Source: an uncultured Hyphomicrobiales bacterium
Lineage (GTDB): Bacteria > Bacteroidota > Ignavibacteria > Kapaibacteriales > UBA2268
Assembly: GCA_964454445.1 (NCBI GenBank)
Contig: CAYVTD010000003.1
Location: 7,300-71,299, forward strand
Length of the DNA: 64,000 nt
Direction: 5' to 3'
A program made the translations under genes and the position numbers. Within the stretch, counting starts at the first letter, position 1, and each line of letters opens with the position of its first letter. Positions 20,952 through 55,518 of this stretch are shown piece by piece. A model generated the notes under the pieces. It was given only the letters and a program-made list of their open reading frames with translations. It was not told the origin of the DNA and ran no database searches.

Positions 20952-21011
<60 letters not shown>

Positions 21012-21041
<30 letters not shown>

Positions 21042-22136
21042 CAAATCTGGATTGAATTTAGCTTTCAATTCTTCATTTCTTTTTTTCAACTCTTCAATCT
21101 CTGCTGTTAATATTTCTTTTGTTAATTCAATCTTATGCTCAAGGTCAATTATTCTTTGAAATAAAACTAAGTATAAATCACTGTCGCTTATGGCTTTGTC
21201 TTGAATCGTTCTTGTAGAATCTTGCTCTTCAGAATTTGTCTTGTTTTCCGTTGCTTCAAAATCGGAAAAATGTTTGCTTAGTTTCTTAGGAGCAGGTTTA
21301 AACAAATCATAGATAGGTGATTCTTTGGAACTATCATCTCTTTGAAATATTTTCCATTTCGCATTGAAAGATTTATAATATGAAGAGAGTTCGCCCAATG
21401 ATTCGCTACTGCCAAGGAAAAGGTAGCCATTAGGAGTAAGAGAAAAACTAAATAAAGACAGCACTTTCTTTTGCAATACGGGTTGGAGATAAATCAGGAG
21501 ATTGCGACAGCTTACCAGGTCAATTTTGGAAAAAGGAGGATCTCTGAGAATGTTGTGTACTGCAAAAACAATCATTCCTCTTATCTTATCGTTTATTTTA
21601 TATGTATTGTCAGATTTTGTAAAAAACTTCTTCAAACGTTCTTCAGAAACATCAATGGCGATATTGTCAGGATAAATGCCGGCGCTGGCAAAATCTATGG
21701 AGTTTTGGTCAATGTCGGTAGCGAAAATTCTTATATCGTGATGTTTGCCCGTTCTTTCCATATATTCTTGCAACATAATGGCAATAGAATATGCTTCTTC
21801 GCCTTTCGAACAGCCAACGACCCAGGCTCGCAACTGCTCGTTATTGTTCTTATTTGCAAAAATATTAGGGATAACGTTTTGTCCGACTATTGACATTGCT
21901 TCAGTGTCCCTAAAAAAATTGGTAACACCGATAAGCAGTTCTTTATATAAAATACTTTGCTCTGTTTCAGATTTCTCAAGCAATTCAAAATATTTTTCGA
22001 AGTCAGCAAGTTTATTGATGCTAATCCGCCTTTGAATACGTCGAATAATTGTATTGTGCTTGTAAAAGGTAAAATCGACTCCTTGAGTGTCTTTCACAAG
22101 ATTAATTATTTTTAGTATTGTTTTTTCGTCGGGCAC
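21012..22136 (-). CDS. cheR: CheR-type chemotaxis protein methyltransferase with a C-terminal coiled-coil extension
   Basis: N-terminal CheR all-alpha domain (TNFFRD) followed by a SAM methyltransferase fold. The last ~10 codons are antisense to the tRNA-Ser 3' half. Confidence 0.8.
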
Positions 22137-29185: not shown

Positions 29186-31405
29186 ATGAAAAAGTTTCTT
29201 AAAACAACCGTTTTCATATTGATCTTTTTTTTGGCTTATTGCGATAATATCCCGGAGGAAAAGATATGGGAACTAAATGTAAATCCATTTATTGGCACTG
29301 GTTCCTGGAGCAACACTTTTCCAGGGGCGATTGCTCCTTGGGGTATGGTTTCGCTAAGCCCTCACAACACAAAGAAAAGGACTACCGGCTATCTTTTCGG
29401 CGAAAAATACATTAATGGCTTTGGGCATACGCACATTAGTGGCGCAGGTTGTGCTGACCTTGGAAGTGTCGTTATTATGCCTATGCTCGACAGAATATCT
29501 TTTAACCCAGATGAATACAAATCAACTTATGATAATGAAAATGCCGGGCCGGGTTACTATTCGTGCACACTAAAAAAGAATAAGATAAAAGCTGAAATGA
29601 GTTGCACCGAGCGTAGTGGCATTAGCAAATATATTTTTTTAAAAGGTGGCACTGCAATGATTGTCGTAGATGCCTCCCGGAGCTTGAGTTCTTTTTTGAG
29701 TGGCTCTGCTTGCATTGATAGCGACAATGAGATTTCTGGCTATAATGAATGTGGACCGTTTTGTCAAGATACCGTTAGAAGAAAAGTTTATTTTAATATA
29801 AATATTGAACCTAAGCCCGATTCCATACGTCTGTTTAAATCAGATAAGATAATTGCATCTAAAACGGTGAAAGGAAAGAATAAATTGCTCGGAGCGGCGA
29901 TTTTCTTGAAGGTTAAAGCCGCTGATTCGATTGTAATTAGAACGGGGATTTCTTACATTTCTGCAAAGAATGCAGCAATGAATTTGGCTTTTGAGCAAGG
30001 TAAGAAGTCTTTTCAAGAGATTAGAAAAGAAACTTTTGATAAATGGGAGAAATTACTATCAAGAATACAGGTGCGAGGTGGCAGTTCTGGCGAAAGGGTT
30101 AGTTTTTATACTGCATTATATCGTATGTGCCTTCATCCGAACATTATTTCAGATATAAATGGTGATTATATTAAATATGGGGGAGGCATTGGCAAGCTCG
30201 ATAGTGGTGTGCAGTATTCTGTTTTTTCACTTTGGGATACATATCGCACATTACACCCCTATCTAAGCTTGGTTTTTCCTGAAAAACAGCATGAAATGAT
30301 GCAATCATTGCTTAGAATGTATAAAGATGGCGGTTGGTTGCCAAAATGGGAGTTGGCAGGCAGGGAAACGATGATTATGGTTGGCGATCCTGCTGCGATT
30401 GTGCTAACTGATTCTTATCTGAAGGGGATAAAAAATATTGATACTCTGCTGTTGAAGGAAGCCCTCTTAAAAAACAGTAGTTTCCTTGATGGCAATGGTA
30501 AAAATTATATACGTAAAGGGCTGAAAGAATATCTTAAGTTTGGTTATATTCCCGAAGATTATAAAAAAGAGTTTGTGTGGGGTAGCGTTTGCACTTCGCT
30601 TGAATATTGCCTTGCTGATTATTGTATTTCAAGATATTTTAAAGAAACAGGCAATACGAGCCTTGCCGATGAGTATTTTTCCCGTTCTATGAATTATAAA
30701 CGACTATTTGATAAAGAAAGGGGGTTCTTCCGTCCAAAAACGAGTAAATGCAAATGGTTTGAGCCATTCGACGAGTATGCAACTTGTTGCAGTTTTGGGG
30801 GCAGTGGCTCTGGCGGTCCCGGTTTTGTCGAGGGTAATGCTTATAATTACAATTTTTTTGTCCCTTATGATATTCACAATATTATTAAATTAATGGGTGA
30901 AAACAGGTTTTTTCAACGGCTCGATTATATAATAGATGAGCAATATTCACTTTGGAACGAACACTCAATGGACTATCCCTATCTTTATGCTTTATTAGAT
31001 AAGAGTATAAGTACCAAATCAATTATTAATAATGAGAAAAAGACACAAAGAATAATTAGGGAGCTATTAAAAAAGAACTTCAAGAACAACCCGAAAGGTT
31101 TTCCCGGTCACGACGATACCGGTACGATGTCCGCATTTTATTTTTTTTCGGCAATAGGCATCTATCCTTATTGCCCTGCGAGTAACGAATACATTATTGG
31201 TTGCCCTCTTTTCGATAAAATCACCATCAGCTCGGATACTAATTATTATCCTTCTGATAAATTAATTATAAGCTCGGAAATGAATACATCTGAATCGTAT
31301 TATATCAAGCGGAAATATATAAACGGCAAGCAGTTTGATGGGAATATGGTAAGCCACAAAGTATTGACTGGGGGGAATGAGTTAAGGTTTGAGATGGGGA
31401 AGTAG
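29186..31405 (+). CDS. Glycoside hydrolase family 92 (alpha-mannosidase-like)
   Basis: N-terminal VNPFIGTGSWSNTFPGAIAPWGMVSLSP matches the GH92 signature VNPFIGTGG...FPGA..PFGMVQLSP. Signal peptide. Length 739 aa. Confidence 0.8.
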   Translation: MKKFLKTTVFILIFFLAYCDNIPEEKIWELNVNPFIGTGSWSNTFPGAIAPWGMVSLSPHNTKKRTTGYLFGEKYINGFGHTHISGAGCADLGSVVIMPMLDRISFNPDEYKSTYDNENAGPGYYSCTLKKNKIKAEMSCTERSGISKYIFLKGGTAMIVVDASRSLSSFLSGSACIDSDNEISGYNECGPFCQDTVRRKVYFNINIEPKPDSIRLFKSDKIIASKTVKGKNKLLGAAIFLKVKAADSIVIRTGISYISAKNAAMNLAFEQGKKSFQEIRKETFDKWEKLLSRIQVRGGSSGERVSFYTALYRMCLHPNIISDINGDYIKYGGGIGKLDSGVQYSVFSLWDTYRTLHPYLSLVFPEKQHEMMQSLLRMYKDGGWLPKWELAGRETMIMVGDPAAIVLTDSYLKGIKNIDTLLLKEALLKNSSFLDGNGKNYIRKGLKEYLKFGYIPEDYKKEFVWGSVCTSLEYCLADYCISRYFKETGNTSLADEYFSRSMNYKRLFDKERGFFRPKTSKCKWFEPFDEYATCCSFGGSGSGGPGFVEGNAYNYNFFVPYDIHNIIKLMGENRFFQRLDYIIDEQYSLWNEHSMDYPYLYALLDKSISTKSIINNEKKTQRIIRELLKKNFKNNPKGFPGHDDTGTMSAFYFFSAIGIYPYCPASNEYIIGCPLFDKITISSDTNYYPSDKLIISSEMNTSESYYIKRKYINGKQFDGNMVSHKVLTGGNELRFEMGK

Positions 31406-31452
31406 GTATCCCCCCAACCCCCCTTGCAAGCAAGGGGGGCTTTTTAATTAGC
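31406..31452 (+). repeat. Left terminal inverted-repeat element (GGTATCCCCCCAACCCCCCTTGCAAGCAAGGGGGGC...TTAATTAGC). Its hairpin plus T-run also serves as the GH92 terminator.
   Basis: Near-identical to the reverse complement of 34974..35018 (24 of 24 identical at the outer end). C6/G6 stem, loop TTGCAAGCAA, then CTTTTT. Confidence 0.8.
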
Positions 31453-31478
31453 TTGTCTTTAATATAATTAACAATAAA

Positions 31479-31659
31479 TCTCCCTCCCATGCTTGTAAGG
31501 GAGGGCAGGGGAGGGATAAAAAAAGACCCCCACCCATGCTTGCAAGGGAGGGCAGGGGAGGGATAAAAAAAGGCCCCCACCCATGCTTGTAAGGGAGGGC
31601 AGGGGAGGGATAAAAAAAGACTCCCTCCCATGCTTGTAAGGGAGGGCAGTGGAGGGATA
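31479..31659 (+). repeat. Tandem array of a 47-bp unit (3.85 copies). Each unit is a GC hairpin (CCCTCCC-N10-GGGAGGG), a G-quadruplex motif GGGAGGGCAGGGGAGGG, and an A7 tract.
   Basis: Units at 31479, 31526, 31573 and 31620 are 47 bp each and more than 90% identical. The minus-strand ORFs in this region encode repeated peptides and are artefacts. Confidence 0.9.
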
Positions 31660-31836
31660 CACTACGGAACATTATATTAATTAAGAATATCAGCTTTCCT
31701 GAAACAATCAAGATAGTCTGCCACAACACATTACAAAAATATACTCATTAGTAAATAATTTTTTATTAATTATGCACAAAGTTCCTTAAATTTGCCTTTT
31801 TATAGTTTAATGTAATGTAAAGTAAGGACAAAAGAA

Positions 31837-32733
31837 ATGCTGAATCAATTGATTATTAAAACGATGCCCTTAGTTCCGAAGTTTATGATCCATCAAGTAG
31901 CAAAGAAATATATTGCTGGCGATGTTTTGCAAGATGCAGTAAACAAAACTCTGGAGCTGCAGAAGGAAGGTGGCTGGTCAACTATCGATGTGCTTGGTGA
32001 GTTTGTTGATAACAAAGAGCGTGCTCTCCACGAAAAGGCGATGAGTTCGAAAGTGCTTGATGCAATTAATGATAATAAACTTCACTCGTATCTTTCCATA
32101 AAGCCGACATCGCTCGGACTGGGTATTGATGTAAAATTTTGCTATCTTAATATCAAGGAATTGCTCCAAAAGTCGAGGGAATTTGGCTTGAATGTGTGCA
32201 TAGATATGGAAAATTCGCCCTATACAGACAAAACTATCGATCTATATCGGCGTTTTCGCGACGAGGGTTTCGACAATGTTAGTATTGTAATCCAAGCGTA
32301 TATGCGGCGGAGCTATAAGGATATCGAATCTTTGTTGTCATACAAGCCATCAATACGTCTGTGCAAGGGCATTTACAAAGAAGCTCCCGAAATAGCATAC
32401 CAAGGAAAACAGGAAGTTCGCGATAATTACAAGAAATTATTTGAGTTGATTGTCGAGAATAAAATGTATATTGGCATAGCAACTCACGACGAAGAGCTGA
32501 TAAATTATGCTGAGGAGCGGATTAAAAGCTTAGGAATGAAGAAGGAAGAATACGAGTTTCAAATGTTGCTTGGCGTCAGGGAAGATAGAAGAAGCGAGCT
32601 TTTGCGCCAAGGGCATCATTTGCGGGTTTATGTGCCTTTTGGGGTCGATTGGTATGGCTACTCTACTCGTCGATTAAAAGAGAATCCACAAATTGCAGGA
32701 CATATTTTCAAAGCAATTTTTACGAATAAATAA
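31837..32733 (+). CDS. Proline dehydrogenase (monofunctional PRODH)
   Basis: 298 aa. TIM-barrel PRODH pattern (...IDVLGEFV..., RLCKGIY, YVPFG..WYGY). Confidence 0.75.
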   Translation: MLNQLIIKTMPLVPKFMIHQVAKKYIAGDVLQDAVNKTLELQKEGGWSTIDVLGEFVDNKERALHEKAMSSKVLDAINDNKLHSYLSIKPTSLGLGIDVKFCYLNIKELLQKSREFGLNVCIDMENSPYTDKTIDLYRRFRDEGFDNVSIVIQAYMRRSYKDIESLLSYKPSIRLCKGIYKEAPEIAYQGKQEVRDNYKKLFELIVENKMYIGIATHDEELINYAEERIKSLGMKKEEYEFQMLLGVREDRRSELLRQGHHLRVYVPFGVDWYGYSTRRLKENPQIAGHIFKAIFTNK

Positions 32734-32779
32734 GATTTTGATATTAAATAAGTTTTTTTTTAAATTAAGGAATAAAATA

Positions 32780-33124
32780 ATGGAAAAAATCAAGTTCACG
32801 GACAAGGGGAATTATGTAATTATGCATCTCGAGGGAAGTGTGGTATTTTTTGACAAAGATTTGAGTGAACTAAGGGCAAAAGTGAAAGAAATAGCAGAAG
32901 CAGGCAAGCATCTGCTAATTGATTTTATTTATGCTGAGTATATTGACTCATTTTTCCAAGGATTTCTCATCTATGCCAATTCGTTAATGCTAAAACAAGG
33001 GAAAAAATTAGTCCTTTATAATTACAATCACTATATAAGAGATACTTTTCGCATAACGAAGATAGACAGTATTTTAATGCTTGTTAATGACAATCTCGAA
33101 GCGTTGAAGGCTATTGGTGAATAA
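32780..33124 (+). CDS. STAS-domain protein (anti-sigma-factor antagonist-like)
   Basis: 115 aa from MEKIKF. SpoIIAA-like fold pattern with an IDS motif (IDSFFQG). Confidence 0.65.
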   Translation: MEKIKFTDKGNYVIMHLEGSVVFFDKDLSELRAKVKEIAEAGKHLLIDFIYAEYIDSFFQGFLIYANSLMLKQGKKLVLYNYNHYIRDTFRITKIDSILMLVNDNLEALKAIGE

Positions 33125-33125
33125 G

Positions 33126-34019
33126 ATGAAAAAGCTCGTTCCTGTTTTTTTATTATTGTGTCTTTTTGTTTTCAAAGGCTGCTCCGAGCAATCAAGATCA
33201 GAAGTTGATAGCAATCCTGGCAATGTTGTCATCGGTACTTTCAATGTGGAATGGCTTGGCGATGGAGTAAGAGATAGAGTGAAGCGAACTGAGAAAGACT
33301 ATAGTAACATATCTAAAATAATAAAAAAAACAGGCGCTGATATTATGGCTTTGCAAGAGGTTGAAAACTCAAAAGCTATGAAGAAACTTTTGAAATATCT
33401 TCCAGGATATAAATTTTACATAAGCAATGGTGGCAGCGCCCAAAAACTCGCTGTCGTTTATAAAAACACTGTAAAGATGGACCTGAAAGGCGATTATAAT
33501 CCCTTAATTGTAAAAAAGAGAGCAACACGGCCAGGGCTTCTTTTCGATGCCAAGAAAGGCAATTTCGATTTTAAGGTAATGGTTGTCCATTTCAAATCGA
33601 CTTCGCATTGGGATAATACGCCAGAAAAAAGGGCAATTAGCGTGGATTTGCGACGACAGCAAGCCGAGAAAGTAGCTGATTGGGTCAATTGGACATTAAA
33701 AAATAGCAAGGAAGAGGATTTGATTGTTGTCGGCGACTTCAACGACACTCCACAGCGCAAAAAAGAAGCAACGCTAACGCCAATGGAAAAAAGAGCAGGA
33801 CTTATATTCCTAACTAGAGATATGAAGAGTTGCAAGTTTAGCAGCTGGTTTGCCATTGACCATATTGCCGTAACAAAAAGTGCCTCGCTCAGGTTTACAA
33901 GCACCATGCCGCAAGTTCTCGATGTACATACCCTATTTTCAAAAGCAGAAGCCGGGAAAATCTCAGATCATTGTCCGATATATGCTGAGTTTGAAGTTAT
34001 TTCGCCTGATAATGATTAA
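33126..34019 (+). CDS. Endonuclease/exonuclease/phosphatase (EEP) family lipoprotein
   Basis: Lipobox LFVFKGC. EEP motifs GTFNVEW, LQEVEN, VVGDFNDTP and DHCPIYAEF. Confidence 0.75.
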   Translation: MKKLVPVFLLLCLFVFKGCSEQSRSEVDSNPGNVVIGTFNVEWLGDGVRDRVKRTEKDYSNISKIIKKTGADIMALQEVENSKAMKKLLKYLPGYKFYISNGGSAQKLAVVYKNTVKMDLKGDYNPLIVKKRATRPGLLFDAKKGNFDFKVMVVHFKSTSHWDNTPEKRAISVDLRRQQAEKVADWVNWTLKNSKEEDLIVVGDFNDTPQRKKEATLTPMEKRAGLIFLTRDMKSCKFSSWFAIDHIAVTKSASLRFTSTMPQVLDVHTLFSKAEAGKISDHCPIYAEFEVISPDND

Positions 34020-34121
34020 GGTTATTTCATCTGTCAAAGAAATAGTTTTGTCATTTTATTTTTTATGATTAATTTTAAAATTATTCAAAATCATATTAAA
34101 AAAAAGTTAAAGGAAAAAAAG

Positions 34122-34487
34122 ATGAAAGTGACAAACCAAAAGCCAGAATTTGAAGTAATCAAGAATGATGGTTATTCGACAGTTAATCTGAAAGGCACTT
34201 TTACCCGCAATGAGAAAGAGAATGAAGAATTAAGAGCAGTATTTCACAAACTTGCCAAAGAGGGAGAGAAAAAAATATTGCTGAGTTTCGCTGATGTAGC
34301 TTATATTGATTCTTCTTTTGTCGGTATTGTTTTATCTTGCAATTCTATTATTAGGAATTCGGGTGGAAAACTGGTAATATTTAATACTCCAGAATATATT
34401 CAATATATTATTAAAATTGCCAATTTAAGCACTGTAATGGACGTTTGCGAAACAGAAGCTCAAGCACTCGAAGTCCTAAAAGTATAA
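34122..34487 (+). CDS. STAS-domain protein (anti-sigma-factor antagonist-like), the second paralogue
   Basis: 121 aa from MKVTNQ. The DSS motif in ...VAYIDSSFVGIVLS is typical of the phosphorylatable serine region. Confidence 0.65.
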   Translation: MKVTNQKPEFEVIKNDGYSTVNLKGTFTRNEKENEELRAVFHKLAKEGEKKILLSFADVAYIDSSFVGIVLSCNSIIRNSGGKLVIFNTPEYIQYIIKIANLSTVMDVCETEAQALEVLKV

Positions 34488-34542
34488 AAGAACAGACAAA
34501 ATAGTTGATTATATTAAAATAATAAAAATAAGGAGTTACCAA

Positions 34543-34779
34543 ATGCCAGAACCCAAAATAGCACAAAAAGCCCCTTATGAAGTGGATTTAGAACCAGGGC
34601 TATATTGGTGGTGCGCCTGTGGCGAATCAAAAAACCAACCTTTTTGTGATGGTAGTCATGTCGGAACGGAATTCTTGCCGAAAGAATTTAGAATAACAGA
34701 AGAAAAAAAGTATTGGCTTTGCGGTTGCAAAAGAACCAAGAACGCGCCATATTGTGACGGAACGCATAATAAATTATAA
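34543..34779 (+). CDS. CDGSH iron-sulfur domain protein (two CDGSH motifs)
   Basis: Two motifs, CACGESKNQPFCDGSH and CGCKRTKNAPYCDGTH. A Shine-Dalgarno site AAGGAG lies upstream. Confidence 0.8.
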   Translation: MPEPKIAQKAPYEVDLEPGLYWWCACGESKNQPFCDGSHVGTEFLPKEFRITEEKKYWLCGCKRTKNAPYCDGTHNKL

Positions 34780-34781
34780 TG

Positions 34782-34934
34782 ATCCCTCCCCAGCCCTCCC
34801 TTGCAAGCAAGGGAGGGAGCTATAAATTGAACCGAGTTTGAGAGCAAGTGAGGGAGCTATAAATTGAACCGGGTAAGAGAGCAAGGGAGGGAGCTATAAA
34901 TTGAACCGGGTAAGAGAGCAAGTGAGGGAGGGAG
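34782..34934 (+). repeat. Right-hand repeat array: one inverted copy of the 47-bp unit (34782..34820), then three 37-bp tandem units (CTATAAATTGAACCGGGTAAGAGAGCAAG(G/T)GAGGGAG).
   Basis: The reverse complement of 34782..34820 aligns to the left-array unit (GCTCCCTCCCTTGCTTGCAAGGGAGGGCTGGGGAGGGAT vs ACTCCCTCCCATGCTTGTAAGGGAGGGCAGGGGAGGGAT). 37-bp units start at 34820, 34857 and 34894. Confidence 0.85.
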
Positions 34935-34973
34935 TAGGATTGCAAGCCGAGCTTGCAAGCAGTTGAGTGAAAG

Positions 34974-35018
34974 TTTTAATTAGCCCTTCTTGCATGCAAG
35001 GGGGGTTGGGGGGATACC
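34974..35018 (-). repeat. Right terminal inverted-repeat element, the partner of 31406..31452
   Basis: Reverse complement GGTATCCCCCCAACCCCCCTTGCATGCAAGAAGGGCTAATTAAAA, compared with left GGTATCCCCCCAACCCCCCTTGCAAGCAAGGGGGGCTTTTTAATTA. Confidence 0.8.
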
Positions 35019-35061: not shown

Positions 35062-35727
35062 ATGGCAATAGAAAACAAATTACAAATGGACGTAATTCTC
35101 GCTGACGACCACGAGGTCGTTAGAGCCGGTTTAAGGCGTCTGCTTTCCATCGACAAGTCGATTAATATTTTGGGTGAAGCTGCCAATGGAGAAGATGCTA
35201 TCGAGCTAGTAAGACTATACAAACCTCATCTAGCATTGCTCGATATTCTTATGCCCAAGATGAACGGTATCGAAGCCACAAAGAGAATAAAATCGGAGTT
35301 TAAAGATGTTCTAGTTGTTATGCTTACAGCATTCGAAGACTTCAACCATATTGAAAAGGCGCTAGCGGCTGGTGCTGATGGTTATCTTTCAAAAGATATT
35401 GCTGCGAAAGAACTTGTCTCGGCTATTCATAAGGCTAGCTTGGGCGAGAGAGTTTTCAGCAAATCAGTTCTTAGTTTGCTCCAAAGAAAATTTAAATCTG
35501 GCGACAGCGAAGAGGATCCTAATGTCATAACCATTTCAAAACGCGAACAAGAGATACTTAATCAGGTTGCTCTTGGAAAAACAAGTGAGGAAATAGCTGA
35601 TTTTCTAAATATCAGCACCCGAACTGTCCACAGCCATAGGGCTAATATAATGGAAAAACTTGGGATAAAGAACACTGCTGGCTTGGTCCGTTATGCCATC
35701 TTCAATGCCGAAGACTTAAAGAAATAA
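35062..35727 (+). CDS. Two-component response regulator, NarL/LuxR family (REC + HTH)
   Basis: REC domain with phospho-acceptor Asp (LLDILMP). C-terminal LuxR HTH ([44 protein letters not shown]). Confidence 0.85.
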   Translation: [221 protein letters not shown]

Positions 35728-39293: not shown

Positions 39294-39503
39294 GAGAGAC
39301 ATTTTTGTCTGTCTATAAGCATTCTAGTCTGTTTACAGACATTCTCGTTTACTTTTACATTTTGTCAGACAAGAATATCTGACCTACCCAAGAATAATTA
39401 CTGATAGACAGAGCCATAGAGCCTTCTTGAGACTACTATATTTAATAAATTTATCGAGAAGGCAGCCAATTCAATTAATGTAAAAGGCTGATTTGCCAAG
39501 TTT

Positions 39504-40481
39504 TTAAAACAAAATTTTTCCTTTTTCGATAACAAGAAAATCATCAAAATAGACAGTAGGGCTTTTCACCAAGCCGTCGATGTGGCTCTTGACATCGAGA
39601 ATGCCACCCATACCAATGTTGTTGCCAAAAGCAAAGTGGATAGTGCCGAGCACTTTTTCATCTTCGAGGATATTACCACATAATTTTGCAAAAGGATTGG
39701 TGCCGACACCAAACTCGCCAATTGTTTTGCCCATATCGCCAAATTTGTTTAACATTCTGCTTAAGACACGAGCGTCGGAGCTGCCTGTAATGTCTTCCGC
39801 CTTACCATTGACCACATCAACGCGAATATGCCTTTTTAATAGTCCAAGTCCGGAAATTGAACCATCGAAATATATAACCCCATTAACTTTGTCCTCGATA
39901 GGAGCCAGATAGACTTCCCCTGAAGGCAGATTGCCGCTATCGCTGATTGTGCGAAGAACGCCTGTGCTTTGAATAATTCTTCTTCCACCGACTTCAAATG
40001 TAATGTCGGTGCCATTGAGTGTTGTTACTCTTATTTTGGAGACACCCGCCATTCTTTTGGCTACTTTACCTGTAATTTCAACAGTTTCGTTGGGCTCGTT
40101 GCTGAGACAGCGGATCATTGTATCTTCAGTAATACCAGGCATTGTGCCGACTCTCACTCCTTGTTCGGAAGCTTCGCGGCGAGCTTTCGTATGGGTAAAC
40201 GAACGATAAGTCGGCGCAACGACTACATCAACTTCTTTCATTATTTTAGCAATTGCGTCAGGTGGTTCTTCGCCATTATTGCCACGCGACTTCATTTCGA
40301 TATATAAAGCTTCACGGCACATGCCATTAGCCATATCGTATAAAGTTAAGCCGATATCACGCTTCTTCTCGTCGGAGACAACAAGAAGAGTTTCGTCTGG
40401 GGCTAATCCCATATAATTTCTCAAAGCCGCTTTTGCTGCTTTCTGAAACTTTGTTAATCCTGCCATTTCTAAAACCTCCAA
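39504..40481 (-). CDS. Aminopeptidase-like protein (COG2309/M29-like family)
   Basis: 325 aa. Weak family-level resemblance only. Confidence 0.4.
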   Translation of the reverse strand: MEVLEMAGLTKFQKAAKAALRNYMGLAPDETLLVVSDEKKRDIGLTLYDMANGMCREALYIEMKSRGNNGEEPPDAIAKIMKEVDVVVAPTYRSFTHTKARREASEQGVRVGTMPGITEDTMIRCLSNEPNETVEITGKVAKRMAGVSKIRVTTLNGTDITFEVGGRRIIQSTGVLRTISDSGNLPSGEVYLAPIEDKVNGVIYFDGSISGLGLLKRHIRVDVVNGKAEDITGSSDARVLSRMLNKFGDMGKTIGEFGVGTNPFAKLCGNILEDEKVLGTIHFAFGNNIGMGGILDVKSHIDGLVKSPTVYFDDFLVIEKGKILF

Positions 40482-40960
40482 AAAAAGTTATTAAAACAAA
40501 CATGATGGTAAAAAAACTTATTTAATAAATCTTAATTGACTTTACAAATATTCAATATTGGCAATTAAGATTATTTTTTGATGTTTCGATTTGCAAACTA
40601 TAATGATATTATAATAATAGAAATTAGTAAACAGCACAAAAATATAAATAATTTTTTAAAATTAAAATTTTTTTTAATTATTTTTTACAATATGTTAAAT
40701 ATTACTATATATAAATTTTTTATTGTCTCAATACATTATTTGCATAATCTTAAATCAGTTTATACCAGAATTTATTTTAATAAATAAAGAATATTGTTTA
40801 ATGATTAAAAGGAAACTATATTATAGATTATTTTAAAATATTTATTAATATTAATTATCATTACTTATTACCCGGAGTAATTATTGGAGATTTTTGACAA
40901 ATATACAATAAATTTTTTTTGTTATCTATTATTTTATTAATTTTGTAGCTTGTTTATTTT

Positions 40961-41042
40961 GCGGACGTGGCGGAATTGGCAGACGCGCCAGACTTAGGAT
41001 CTGGTGGGGCGACCCGTGGGAGTTCGAGTCTCCCCGTCCGCA
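40961..41042 (+). tRNA. tRNA-Leu (anticodon UAG)
   Basis: Acceptor GCGGACG/CGTCCGC. Anticodon stem CCAGA/TCTGG with loop ct-TAG-ga. Long variable arm. T-arm GGTTCGAGTCC. Confidence 0.85.
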
Positions 41043-41078
41043 CTCTAATTGTAAAAGCTAATAATAAAAGGTGATAAT

Positions 41079-52522: not shown

Positions 52523-53677
52523 ATGAGAACTATCGAAGCGCAGCGTTTGTCGGGCATTCCTGAATCAATTTTTACAACAATTTCCCAACTTGCTTTTCAG
52601 CATAATGCCGTCAATCTTGGTCAGGGTTTCCCTGATTTTGATGGGCCTGAATGGCTGATGCAAGCAGCTTATAGTGCTATGAAAGCAGGAAAGAATCAAT
52701 ATGCTCCCTCGAGTGGCATTTTTTCTTTAAGGAAGGAAATATGCGAAAATCAAAACAAGTATTATGGTTTGCAATGGGATAATGAAAAGAATGTTACGAT
52801 TACTTCTGGAGCTACTGAAGCTATTTATACCACAATAACAGCCCTGGTCGATGAGGGCGACGAAGTCATCATGTTCGAGCCGTTTTACGATTCCTATCAA
52901 GCAGTAGTGAAGCTTGCCGGCGGAGTCGAAAAATATGTTACATTGAAAAAGCCTGATTTCCATTTTGATTTCGACGAACTCGAAGCTTTGATTAATAAAA
53001 GAACAAAAATCATAATCATCAATACTCCCCACAACCCAAGTGGAAAGATTTTTAACAACGAAGAGCTGCAATTCATTGCGAAACTTGCAGTTAAAAACGA
53101 TTTGATTGTCGTTTCCGACGAGGTTTATGAATTTTTAACTTATGATGGTATAGAGCATCGGTCGATAGCAGAATTTCCAGAGATGATGGAAAGAACCGTT
53201 ATCATATCTTCGACAGGCAAGACTTTTAGTATGACCGGCTGGAAAATCGGTTGGGCTATCGCAAGCGAAATAATTACAGGTGCAATCAGAAAAGTCCATC
53301 AGTGGACAACGTTTGCATCGAACACACCTGCTCAACAGGCGATGGCTTTCGCACTTACACAACTCGACTCTTACATTCCTGAATTTCGGAAAATGTATCT
53401 TCAAAAGCGTGATTTGATTTATTCCAAACTTTTAGAAACCCGTTTTACTCCTTATAAACCGTATGGGAGCTATTTCATTTTGGCGGATATGCCTGAAGAT
53501 ACAAAAACTAAAGGAATTGAATTTGCCAAGGAGCTCATCGTTAATTCTGGTGTTGCCACTATTCCTGTTTCAATTTTTTATAAAAAATCAGACGAAGGCG
53601 ATACAATGATACGTTTATGTTTCGCCAAAAGTAATGATACTATTTATAAAGGAATTGACTTATTAAGAAATGTGTGA
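52523..53677 (+). CDS. PLP-dependent aminotransferase, class I/II
   Basis: SSTGKTFSMTGWKIGW lysine region. Length 384 aa. Confidence 0.8.
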   Translation: MRTIEAQRLSGIPESIFTTISQLAFQHNAVNLGQGFPDFDGPEWLMQAAYSAMKAGKNQYAPSSGIFSLRKEICENQNKYYGLQWDNEKNVTITSGATEAIYTTITALVDEGDEVIMFEPFYDSYQAVVKLAGGVEKYVTLKKPDFHFDFDELEALINKRTKIIIINTPHNPSGKIFNNEELQFIAKLAVKNDLIVVSDEVYEFLTYDGIEHRSIAEFPEMMERTVIISSTGKTFSMTGWKIGWAIASEIITGAIRKVHQWTTFASNTPAQQAMAFALTQLDSYIPEFRKMYLQKRDLIYSKLLETRFTPYKPYGSYFILADMPEDTKTKGIEFAKELIVNSGVATIPVSIFYKKSDEGDTMIRLCFAKSNDTIYKGIDLLRNV

Positions 53678-53703
53678 TGATAAAGCTGCTTAAGAATATT
53701 TAA

Positions 53704-54183
53704 ATGCCAATAATAGATGATAATATTGAATCAGGAGACGCTTTTTGGATGCAAGTGGCTTTAGACTTGGCAAGCATGGCGGCAGAAAACGAAGATGTGC
53801 CTGTTGGATGCGTTATTGTCAAAGATGAGGCTATCATTGGCAAAGGATATAATTGTGTTGAGAAAGATAAAGATGCCACTGCTCATGCCGAGTTAATTGC
53901 AATAAAAGAAGCTATTAAAACAGCTGGTTACAAGCATTTGCTTGACACAAAGATATATACGACACTTGAGCCTTGTTCTATGTGTGCCGGGGCTATTGTT
54001 CTTGCCAGAATTTCTGAAATTATTATTGCTGCAGACGACTTAAAAGCTGGCGCTTGTGGTTCTGTTTTGAATATTGCTCAAAACGAAAGGTTAAATCATA
54101 GATGCGTAATTAGAAGAGGGGTTTTAAGAGAAGAAAGCGAGCTAATGATTAAAGATTTTTTCAAAAAGCTAAGAGAAAAGTAA
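53704..54183 (+). CDS. tadA: tRNA-specific adenosine deaminase
   Basis: HAELIAI and PCSMCAGA zinc-binding deaminase motifs. Confidence 0.85.
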   Translation: MPIIDDNIESGDAFWMQVALDLASMAAENEDVPVGCVIVKDEAIIGKGYNCVEKDKDATAHAELIAIKEAIKTAGYKHLLDTKIYTTLEPCSMCAGAIVLARISEIIIAADDLKAGACGSVLNIAQNERLNHRCVIRRGVLREESELMIKDFFKKLREK

Positions 54184-54184
54184 G

Positions 54185-54913
54185 ATGGACAATAATATTG
54201 AAATTCTTGGTAGTTTATATATTGTGCCAACTCCGATAGGAAACCTCGAGGATATAACGTTTCGTTCGCTCAAGACCTTGAATTCCGTTGATATTATTGC
54301 CTGCGAAGATACCCGGGAAACTTCGAAATTGCTTAACCATTATAAGATAAATGGGAAAACACTTGAGAGTTACCACGAGCATAATGAAGAAACTAAAAAT
54401 CATTATTTGTTGAGTTTGCTTAAGTCGGGTAAAAAAATTGCATTAGTTTCCGATGCAGGCACACCCACAGTTTCCGATCCTGGATATAAACTTGTTCGTT
54501 TATGCTTGCATAATGGAATTAATGTTGTTCCCTTGCCGGGTGCTTCTGCAATGCTGACAGCACTGACAGCAAGCGGTTTACCGACAGATAAATTCACATT
54601 CTTTGGCTTTCCACCTCAAAAAAAAGGTCGGTCAGAATTTTTGAAATCTATTGCCAATCATCCATTTACATCTATTATTTATGAATCGCCACATAAAATC
54701 TTGGATTTCGTCGGCGATTTAGCAGAAATTCTCGAAGAATCACGCGAAATATGTATAGCAAGAGAACTAACAAAAAAATTTGAAGAGATTTTTTTAGGGA
54801 CGATCTCTGAAGCAAAGGAATTCTTAGCGAAAAAAGATAGGATTTTGGGTGAATTTGTAGTAATTTTGTCGGGAAAAGAAAAAGATAAAATGGAAAACAA
54901 TGAGGATAACTGA
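54185..54913 (+). CDS. rsmI: 16S rRNA (cytidine1402-2'-O)-methyltransferase
   Basis: Tetrapyrrole-methylase fold N-terminus LYIVPTPIGNLEDIT. Confidence 0.85.
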   Translation: MDNNIEILGSLYIVPTPIGNLEDITFRSLKTLNSVDIIACEDTRETSKLLNHYKINGKTLESYHEHNEETKNHYLLSLLKSGKKIALVSDAGTPTVSDPGYKLVRLCLHNGINVVPLPGASAMLTALTASGLPTDKFTFFGFPPQKKGRSEFLKSIANHPFTSIIYESPHKILDFVGDLAEILEESREICIARELTKKFEEIFLGTISEAKEFLAKKDRILGEFVVILSGKEKDKMENNEDN

Positions 54914-55518
54914 TGCTTATAACTTTTGAGGGGATTGACGGCTCTGGCAAATCGACGCAAATTAAGCTTTTATCTGATTATTTAAAATCCATCGGTCATC
55001 AAGTTATTCAGTTTCGCGAACCTGGAAGTAGCCATGTCTCTGAAATAATCAGGTCTTTGCTACTAGACAAGGATTCCTCGATAACTCCTATTACAGAGCT
55101 ATTTCTTTTCGAGGCTGCCCGGTCTGAATTAGTCGAAAGACATGTGATTCCTGCACTAAAAGAGGGTAAAACTGTACTTATAGACCGTTTCTATGACTCT
55201 ACGACTGCTTACCAGGGCTATGGCAGGGAACTCGATATCGACAACGTAAAAACTTGTAATATGTTTGCAACACAAGGATTTATTCCTGATTTGACCTTTT
55301 TCCTCGATATTTCAATTAAAACGTCTGCAAAACGCTCCACAGATAAGGAGAAAGACAGAATGGAAATGGCTGGAAATGCGTTTTTTAAAAGGGTTATAGC
55401 CGGATTTAAGCAGATTGCAAACGATGAGCCGGACAGGTTTCATATTATTAATGCAAATGGAGATGTTTTGCAAACGCATAATTTGATTGTAAACATAGTT
55501 ACTCAACGTTTAGTATAG
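54913..55518 (+). CDS. tmk: Thymidylate kinase
   Basis: P-loop FEGIDGSGKST. Its start overlaps the rsmI stop. Confidence 0.9.
   Translation: MLITFEGIDGSGKSTQIKLLSDYLKSIGHQVIQFREPGSSHVSEIIRSLLLDKDSSITPITELFLFEAARSELVERHVIPALKEGKTVLIDRFYDSTTAYQGYGRELDIDNVKTCNMFATQGFIPDLTFFLDISIKTSAKRSTDKEKDRMEMAGNAFFKRVIAGFKQIANDEPDRFHIINANGDVLQTHNLIVNIVTQRLV

Follow-up and report, generated by a model that had tools for sequence, protein, structure and literature searches.

Organization of the locus

The 64-kb stretch of DNA analysed here (the window, meaning the whole stretch at its full length) contains a 3.6-kb segment in which five genes, led by a proline dehydrogenase (ProDH) gene, lie between two GC-rich repeat clusters that mirror one another. 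A preliminary description of this DNA had read the arrangement as a five-gene cassette able to invert or excise, and had offered a REP-like repeat or a strongly insulated operon as further options. Here we report that the repeats are most probably two independent clusters of a dispersed intergenic family, and that the five genes form an ordinary operon with its own leader, situated between clusters of opposite orientation; we put the probability of this reading at roughly 0.8.

Homologs of the ProDH protein, named Kapabacteria or Kapaibacterium, place the organism in the Kapabacteria (Ca. Kapaibacteria). Fifty open reading frames (ORFs) were called in the window and all were put through a Pfam search, which identified genes of an ordinary chromosomal kind (RecG, RelA/SpoT, flagellar FliL-O, trigger factor, PBP2, type IX secretion system (T9SS) cargo) and, among these 50 ORFs, no match to transposase, integrase, recombinase or Cas families; for transposase, integrase and CRISPR-associated genes this agrees with the preliminary description. 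When the whole 3.6-kb segment was compared by BLAST with plasmids, nothing meaningful was found (one 64-nt coding-region match only), and the same comparison with phages gave no match. The segment and its flanking genes are arranged as follows.

29186..31405, plus strand: GH92 glycoside hydrolase gene, upstream flank (Pfam Glyco_hydro_92 and its N domain)
31405..31447, plus strand: repeat unit A, the left arm, GGTAT-CCCCCC-AA-CCCCCC-TTGCAAGCAA-GGGGGG-CTTTTT
31482..31659, minus strand: four B units in tandem with a 47-bp period (block parsing, tandem-repeat detection)
31661..31836, plus strand: AT-rich unique operon leader, inside the repeats (from the sequence; nearly invariant across strains)
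31837..32733, plus strand: proline dehydrogenase gene (Pfam Pro_dh)
32780..33124, plus strand: first STAS-domain gene (Pfam STAS)
33126..34019, plus strand: gene of the EEP (endonuclease/exonuclease/phosphatase) family with a lipoprotein-like signal peptide (Pfam Exo_endo_phos)
34122..34487, alternative start 34065, plus strand: second STAS-domain gene (Pfam STAS)
34543..34779, plus strand: CDGSH iron-sulfur gene (Pfam zf-CDGSH)
34782..34824, plus strand: unit B', a full three-block unit, GAT-CCCTCCCC-AG-CCCTCCC-TTGCAAGCAA-GGGAGGG
34806..34930, plus strand: array of 37-bp half units, each the 3' hairpin arm GCAAGGGAGGGAG with an AT-rich spacer
34940-34958: small palindrome TTGCAAGC-CGA-GCTTGCAA, downstream of the half-unit array
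34976..35018, minus strand: unit A', the right arm, a decayed copy of A
35062..35727, plus strand: NarL/LuxR-type response regulator gene, downstream flank (Pfam Response_reg and GerE)

The Pfam assignments of the five interior genes agree with the identities given to them earlier. The EEP protein begins with MKKLVPVFLLLCLFVFKGC, and the product of the second STAS gene is 121 or 140 aa long depending on the contig, as gene callers differ in their choice of start. The TAG stop codon of the GH92 gene directly adjoins unit A, and unit B' begins 2 nt past the CDGSH stop. A promoter belonging to the operon itself presumably lies in the leader, where TAAATTTG (31787-31794), a putative promoter element, agrees with the Bacteroidota -7 motif TAnnTTTG. 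Three mechanical ORFs of 64-108 aa on the minus strand (31305-31729) cross the left repeat array and are likely spurious gene calls of automatic annotation.

Architecture of the repeat unit

The features on which the preliminary description rested are present. The two long arms (31405-31447 and 34976-35018) are 43 nt in length, 88% complementary and identical over their outer 24 nt, which corresponds to the inverted ~45-bp element reported with 24/24 outer identity. The left tandem array has a period of 47 bp x3.8 at 31482-31659 with 93% matches; on the right, a single inverted copy of the 47-bp-type unit (B', 34782-34824) is joined by an array of 37 bp x3.4 (34806-34930). The description of the repeats as GC-rich islands also holds: the window has an overall G+C content of 37%, and G/C blocks of the repeat type are found elsewhere in the 64 kb only inside one tRNA and at a few coding sites. 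Across the window GGGAGGGCAGGGGAGGG occurs five times against 0.01 expected by chance, and the hairpin pattern seven times against 0.00 expected.

The basic unit is ~35-45 nt long and consists of AT, a first C-block, a linker of 2-4 nt, a second C-block, TTGC-WW-GCAA or TTAT-WW-ATAA, and a G-block, after which many units end in a T-run. Type A units have the blocks C6/C6/G6 and type B units CCCTCCCC/CCCTCCC/GGGAGGG, so that a left B unit in canonical reading on the minus strand is AT-CCCTCCCC-TG-CCCTCCC-TTACAAGCAT-GGGAGGG-T-run. Every unit of the TT...AA type carries a conserved AT at its outer edge, the 5' flank being (G/T/A)AT followed by the C-block.

Within a unit, the second C-block, the G-block and the TTGC/GCAA extension form a hairpin of 9-11 bp with a nearest-neighbour folding energy of -18 to -23 kcal/mol. 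The hairpin covaries, with G-C, A-T and C-G found at pair 3 and C-G or T-A at pairs 2 and 9, and compensatory changes preserve it across subfamilies and species (TTGC/GCAA vs TTAT/ATAA; C-G vs T-A at the interrupted position). The alternative pairing of the first C-block with the G-block is weakened by the bases involved, the interrupting base of the first C-block being T, A or G while the G-block keeps its A. Unit A has its hairpin at 31418-31439 (-18.2 kcal/mol), and that of B' is of similar strength (-19.6 kcal/mol). In A', GAAGGG replaces GGGGGG in the G-block and the loop is changed by 1 nt; its minus-strand hairpin is weak (-8.7 kcal/mol, z -0.06). No Rfam family matched the repeats at gathering thresholds, where only miRNA-like noise appeared below threshold.

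Read in canonical orientation, the left spacer is A(+) followed by four B(-), and the right spacer is B'(+), half units and A'(-). Each spacer thus amounts to two convergent units or arrays that fold back on each other from end to end; the foldback energy is -129 kcal/mol (z -6.0) in the left cluster, and the right cluster reaches -86 kcal/mol (z -3.7). The nested inverted symmetry between left and right arises because each cluster is a convergent pair and the two neighbours are oppositely oriented, an outcome expected one time in two.

On the G-rich strand the blocks come in the order pyrimidine stem, purine stem, second purine stem, and judged by its letters the unit satisfies the published rules for a class II purine-motif intrastrand triplex. 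An ITxF-like re-implementation of the published triad rules (PMC4666352) detected four such motifs in the window, every one of them within a cluster, compared with 0 for 30 shuffles. The minus strand of unit A (31408-31439) is a perfect 8-triad motif with 0 mismatches, parsed as CCCCCCTT / GCTTGC / AAGGGGGG / TT / GGGGGGAT, and the minus strand of B' is a 10-triad motif with 1 mismatch. In the left array, whose plus strand is the G-rich side capable of triplex or G-quadruplex (G4) structure (GGGAGGGCAGGGGAGGG), the first and fourth B units obey the triad rules, and the second and third, which are decayed copies, fail them, as does A'. With TT/AA/AT counted as stem, A and B' have a first loop of 6 nt and a second of 1-2 nt; the first and fourth B units parse only with a first loop of 10 nt, above the published 1-6 nt, and that loop is itself the 4-bp stem extension. 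The strands 5'-CCCCCCTTGCTTGCAAGGGGGGTTGGGGGGAT and 5'-CCCTCCCATGCTTGTAAGGGAGGGCAGGGGAGGGAT are candidate triplex- or G4-forming strands.

The conserved outer AT can be understood in the same terms, because it would form T.A-T and A.A-T triads with the AA of GCAA/ATAA. In a relative with 80% ProDH identity, units that lack the TT...AA extension also lack the outer AT, a contrast that amounts to one or two independent cases only, since the copies are related. The same scan found triplex motifs in other repeat-bearing contigs (L135, L139, L142, L145, L006, L127) and none in the repeat-free relatives L005, L129 and L131.

Dispersal of the family

Copies of the family are proven at ~5 loci in one metagenome-assembled genome (MAG) and at ~9 in metagenome contigs. 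The MAG, GCA_029562445.1, carries the right cluster of the window (L041) and further copies at places of unrelated function. Its flgA|flgH gap (L135) holds three A-type units with a 53-bp period that face one inverted unit, and a solo unit lies at 968-1003 of the same contig; its queG|pth gap (L139/L140) is filled by a 600-bp cluster made of an A unit, four 88-bp repeats and two B units. Another cluster, found downstream of gatD in the sample that also yielded one of the strain contigs (L001), probably belongs to the window's genome; it has a 44-bp period and units with T7 tails. A 66-aa ORF has been called through the queG|pth cluster in L139/L141.

Unit A shares 91% identity with the copy that lies downstream of queG and 88% with A', its supposed partner; for unit B' the figures are 93% with the pth-side copy and 80-87% with the B units on the left. 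The units of the window thus resemble copies at unrelated loci as closely as they resemble one another, or more so, and the two "ends" do not form a matched pair but are ordinary members of the family. Of the options left by the preliminary description it is the REP-like one that these dispersed intergenic units bear out.

A metagenome-wide pattern scan recovered the same architecture in ~9 other AT-rich intergenic contexts, three of which exact-protein look-ups tie to the window's own genome or source sample. Units in other AT-rich metagenome contigs adjoin xth, nuoK, rmlD and an ORF of the DUF559 family. The layout of one unit facing a tandem array recurs with periods of 53 bp (flgA|flgH), 88 bp (queG|pth), 44 bp (gatD) and 43 bp (rmlD), and the succession of a full unit and half-unit arrays is also present upstream of rmlD in L111. 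All copies are intergenic. Some units stand alone, others form convergent pairs, and there is tandem amplification within clusters.

The DUF559 ORF, which has a very-short-patch-repair-like endonuclease fold (L127 148-495, minus strand), has A(+)/B(-) doublets on both sides in direct orientation; this contig is not tied to the window's species. The same three-block design was also seen in metagenome contigs of 46-60% G+C (L068, L086, L090, L103, L107, L115, L116, L126), with units reading AAT-CCCTCCC-GG-CCTCCC-TTACAAGCAA-GGGAGG or TAAT-CCCCCC-TA-CCCCCC-TTGCAAGCAA-GGGGGG. This suggests that the repeat family, or at least its design, reaches beyond the window's species. A scan of a genome collection that does not include the window's species returned only scattered chance or unrelated hairpins. 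A link to phages was considered and rejected: viral contigs gave 0 hairpin matches and, for the pair of C-blocks, 2 chance matches in coding sequence.

In the MAG, a 134-aa ORF beside the flagellar rod genes (L135 1015-1419, minus strand) matches Pfam ubiquitin / Rad60-SLD with an E value of 9e-17 and has the solo repeat unit immediately downstream. Bacteria do not commonly have ubiquitin folds of this eukaryote-like type.

Variation among strains

Exact-protein look-ups also yielded 12 contigs of the same species, from at least 10 samples and representing two haplotypes. Samples from digesters and sludge, among them ERZ27257488 and JGI 3300010357, contain the organism. All 12 are collinear with the window, and none has the 3.6-kb segment inverted or missing. 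The repeats themselves do vary. Haplotype B (L002, L003, L004, L045) has a single unit in the left array, L001 has two and the window four, and the number differs even between strains that are 99% identical; the middle of the right spacer, within the array, likewise exists in two haplotypes. The outer A and A' arms are invariant, A' being identical in 10 sequences (the window and nine contigs).

Relatives and history of the operon

In a relative with 87% ProDH identity (L005), the ProDH-STAS-EEP-STAS operon lacks both repeats and a CDGSH gene; its flanks are plain and its terminator is a conventional one. The 80% relative (L006, MAG GCA_964577665.1) has no repeats upstream of the operon or in the ~240 bp of downstream sequence on its contig, and carries them inside it instead, where a 538-bp mosaic with three-block doublets occupies the STAS1|EEP gap (L006 11256-11794). 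The preliminary description had itself named unpaired elements at unrelated sites, and relatives with the genes but no repeats, as findings that would tell against a cassette; in substance both were found, the latter in L005 and L006, whose operons have no bordering repeats. The CDGSH gene is absent after the second STAS gene in L005 (87%) and in L129-L132 (70%), and the L006 contig stops ~240 bp past its second STAS gene.

The trio of ProDH, EEP lipoprotein and STAS genes is conserved across Kapabacteria; the first STAS gene is an addition of the 80-87% relatives, and the CDGSH gene occurs only in the window's species. The trio brings together proline oxidation, a secreted EEP enzyme and STAS-type proteins of the partner-switching kind, which may be functionally linked.

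The position of the operon has changed. In three lineages of relatives with ~70-80% ProDH identity (L006, L129/L130, L131/L132) it stands right after a block of aminotransferase, dCMP deaminase, TP_methylase and tmk genes, or one gene later. In the window a TPR gene comes after this block (52523-55518), the operon being found ~21 kb away beside the species-specific GH92 gene. As the tmk block here has no adjoining operon, the operon was relocated in the window's lineage. The relocated region shows other rearrangements too, and the downstream response regulator shares 65% identity with a regulator of a 70% relative whose gene is situated ~5 kb upstream of ProDH there.

Spacers filled with repeats are not peculiar to the window's species. 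In the 80% relative the spacers of the flagellar operon (L145 8700-16100), 0.3-1.3 kb long, are a mosaic of at least five repeat families, which is found in its ProDH operon as well. These include a 33-nt perfect palindrome (AGATGTCCAACATCTGCCAGATGTTGGACATCT), units of the form TGTCATTGCGAG...GCAATCTC, hairpins of the form GTCATTCTGAAC...TTCAGAAT and a 412-bp duplication; a blastn-short search found none of these families in the window. The flgA|flgH spacer of a relative with 91% FlgG identity is also filled, by a different mosaic, and offers no clean insertion boundary.

Other observations in the window include a very AT-rich spacer of 612 bp (40467-41078), with several short AT tandem repeats at 40599-40868, which lies upstream of tRNA-Leu(TAG) (40961-41043) and the trigger factor gene; a second tRNA, Ser(GCT), is at 20952-21042. 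An imperfect tandem repeat of 20 bp x2.5 (AGACATTCTAGTCTGTCTAC, 39297-39345) follows right after an arylsulfotransferase-like T9SS cargo gene and bears no relation to the G/C-block family.

Comparison with known repeat systems

The closest analogues of these repeats appear to be the BoxC/PIT/TM_ECO triplex motifs of E. coli, in an arrangement that resembles clusters of repetitive extragenic palindromes (REP), the bacterial interspersed mosaic elements (BIMEs). BoxC/PIT/TM_ECO elements have the consensus 5'-CCCTCNCCC-N3-6-GGGNGAGGG-N3-GGGNGAGGG (Holder et al. 2015, PMC4666352) and are class II purine-motif intrastrand triplex sequences shown by nuclear magnetic resonance (NMR) to fold as triplexes; they are intergenic, sometimes occur as tandem inverted repeats, and mark loci that are hypervariable between strains (PMC4666352). 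The hosts named for TM_ECO are Proteobacteria, other G/C-rich triplex motifs being known from Cyanobacteria (PMC4666352).

The likeness extends to the order of elements on the G-rich strand (pyrimidine stem, loop, purine stem, loop of 1-3 nt, second purine stem), to the G.G-C / A.A-T / T.A-T triad rules with stems of 7-10 nt, and to G/C-rich, intergenic, multi-copy elements that sometimes form inverted tandem pairs at strain-variable loci. The sequences themselves are dissimilar, CCCTCCC/GGGAGGG or C6/G6 standing here in place of CCCTCNCCC/GGGNGAGGG; BLAST of the repeats against E. coli genomes gave no match, and the repeats do not fit the TM_ECO consensus. Unlike TM_ECO, the repeats described here have a first loop with a 4-bp palindromic stem extension (TTGC/GCAA or TTAT/ATAA), form tandem arrays of 37-88 bp and reside in an AT-rich Kapabacteria host. 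By the build of their blocks, then, the Kapabacteria repeats are of the same kind as TM_ECO and not of the same family.

With the REP/BIME elements of Enterobacteria and the REPINs of Pseudomonas they share short G/C-rich extragenic palindromes (hairpins of 9-11 bp here), clusters of alternating orientation with two subtypes mixed with other short motifs (the window clusters, flgA|flgH, queG|pth, L127), a variable number of units per cluster, and inverted doublets that fold into long hairpins. Unlike REP, they have no 5' GTAG tetranucleotide, possess an extra third block per unit, are so far established in tens of copies at most compared with hundreds, and are unaccompanied by a gene for a REP-associated tyrosine (Y1) transposase (RAYT) within the 64 kb searched. 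Miniature inverted-repeat transposable elements (MITEs) such as Correia, ERIC and Nezha are similarly intergenic and foldback-capable, with inverted termini and terminator-like hairpins; here, in contrast, no target-site duplication is seen, length is not fixed, and the interior consists of tandem copies of the termini with no unique core. We conclude that the repeats are an apparently undescribed triplex-motif palindromic family in BIME-like clusters, of a kind that is itself already known.

Alternative explanations

Several considerations weigh against our reading. The proven copies (~5 loci in the MAG and ~9 in metagenome contigs) are far below the hundreds typical of REP. Only two clusters occur in the 64 kb, 3.1 kb apart and around one operon, a placement for which, if clusters are rare, we estimate a chance of ~0.1 on a uniform model. 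As the operon has moved from its ancestral position after tmk, there may be a link between repeats and rearrangement. The differences in unit number come from short-read assemblies, which are prone to mis-assemble tandem arrays. We infer triplex or G4 formation, polymerase stalling and terminator activity from sequence features, and for a terminator role it is a further difficulty that no promoter or terminator activity was detected for the E. coli PIT elements (PMC4666352).

A tentative alternative, unlikely on balance, is that the clusters are MITE- or REPIN-like non-autonomous transposons with hairpin terminal inverted repeats, mobilized by a transposase encoded elsewhere (e.g., a RAYT or an IS200/IS605-type Y1 enzyme, which would recognize the hairpin together with its 5' flank), with the arrays arising after insertion; it competes with our reading only on how the family spreads. 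Inverted three-block units do bound the clusters and fold end to end, near-identical units (91-93%) lie at distant loci of one genome, the outer AT is conserved on every TT...AA-type unit, and REP/BIME elements are tied to Y1 transposases (PMC3333891). Nevertheless, the window encodes no transposase, the REP-typical 5' GTAG is absent, and the triad rules account equally well for the conserved AT. Neither cluster is framed by a target-site duplication visible in the sequence (31405/31660 and 34780/35018), and no empty site was found for comparison; the search for one through GH92 orthologs ended with a next best GH92 outside the species of only 44% identity.

It is doubtful that the arrays are selected insulators, that is, bidirectional terminators or stabilizers of mRNA 3' ends that isolate the ProDH operon from the GH92 and response regulator genes. 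Unit A, a 9-bp G/C hairpin followed by T5 right after the GH92 stop, scores as terminator-like, and it and the T7-tailed (U7 in RNA) gatD units look like intrinsic terminators in sequence; two of the left B units also score as terminator-like on the minus strand, where T-runs follow all four, and units begin 1-2 nt past stop codons. The right-hand units, however, have no U-tracts and, like the flgA|flgH units, are unlike terminators. The left minus-strand terminators face no gene, unit number varies freely between strains, and the family sits inside co-directional operons (flgA|flgH; the relative's STAS1|EEP gap), where strong termination would be harmful; the silence of the PIT elements (PMC4666352) points the same way. 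Of the strongly insulated operon that had been proposed, there survives only the weak sense in which the hairpin and T5 of unit A may serve the GH92 gene.

Quite unlikely, in our estimation, is a reading in which the three-block design has been selected for triplex or G4 folding of single strands and the clusters are programmed fragile or recombination sites that moved the ProDH operon, the inverted pair being perhaps still able to bring about a rare inversion. It draws on the independent recurrence of the design in a distant phylum and on the way in which the outer AT tracks the TT...AA extension. If it is true, recombination between clusters reshuffles gene order, including the shift of the ProDH operon from its place after tmk.

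We consider it improbable that four sense-strand GGGAGGGCAGGGGAGGG G4 motifs regulate ProDH transcription, or that they set off local recombination in the manner of the pilE G4 of Neisseria. The 64 kb contains four canonical G4 motifs, against 0.035 expected, and each falls within a cluster; the three in the left B array belong to the sense strand and precede the ProDH start codon by 230-340 nt. These motifs, however, are confined to B-type units; A-type units (G6-TT-G6) are poor G4 formers and yet are members of the family. Some strains have only one unit, the family occupies loci of unrelated function, and NMR of TM_ECO favoured triplex over G4 (PMC4666352).

Least credible of all is the cassette itself, in which A/A' and B/B' would be functional ends of a module that inverts or excises by means of a site-specific recombinase encoded elsewhere, or of RecA at the perfect 24-nt arms: the 43-nt arms with their 88% complementarity and perfect outer match, the different genomic positions of the operon in relatives, and outer arms that stay invariant among strains while the interior arrays vary all speak for it, but against it stand 12 of 12 collinear strain contigs with no inverted or empty variant, the lack of any recombinase in the 64-kb window, copies at unrelated loci that match as well as or better than the two ends, relatives whose operon has no bordering repeats or has repeats inside, and a G+C content that is flat through the region, with no anomaly of the 3.6-kb interior relative to its flanks. 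The same single orientation and missing recombinase tell against an invertible segment of the Hin/Gin or Bacteroides type. A CRISPR array is rejected, since whole units stand head to tail with no unique spacers and no Cas domains, as are integron attC sites and an insertion sequence (IS), for which integrase and transposase are wanting; here the preliminary description had been right to see neither IS nor CRISPR.

Mechanism and implications

Under our reading of the clusters as members of a dispersed family, their behaviour may be pictured as follows. When single-stranded, the G-rich strand would adopt a hairpin with the second purine block laid in, or a G4. Such hairpin or triplex folding during replication could stall the polymerase, an effect established for purine-motif triplexes (as cited in PMC4666352), and stalling may lead to slippage between direct repeats, which would generate both the arrays with periods of 37-88 bp and the polymorphism of one, two or four units. 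At the level of RNA the hairpin alone would be relevant, and units with a hairpin and T-run may terminate transcription or stabilize 3' ends. For the spread of units to new spacers, a transposase encoded elsewhere and recombination are the candidate routes.

For annotation, these results remove a false lead: ProDH-STAS-EEP-STAS, with CDGSH added here, is a normal, vertically inherited Kapabacteria operon and neither mobile nor phase-variable. Clusters of this kind also explain why short-read assemblies of these organisms break at such points. More broadly, triplex motifs of the BoxC/PIT type in BIME-like mosaics are extended to an AT-rich and little-studied Bacteroidota/Ignavibacteriota lineage. 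That an unrelated sequence follows the same triad rules lends modest comparative support to the view that conservation acts on three-strand compatibility itself, and that loci of this sort are unstable.

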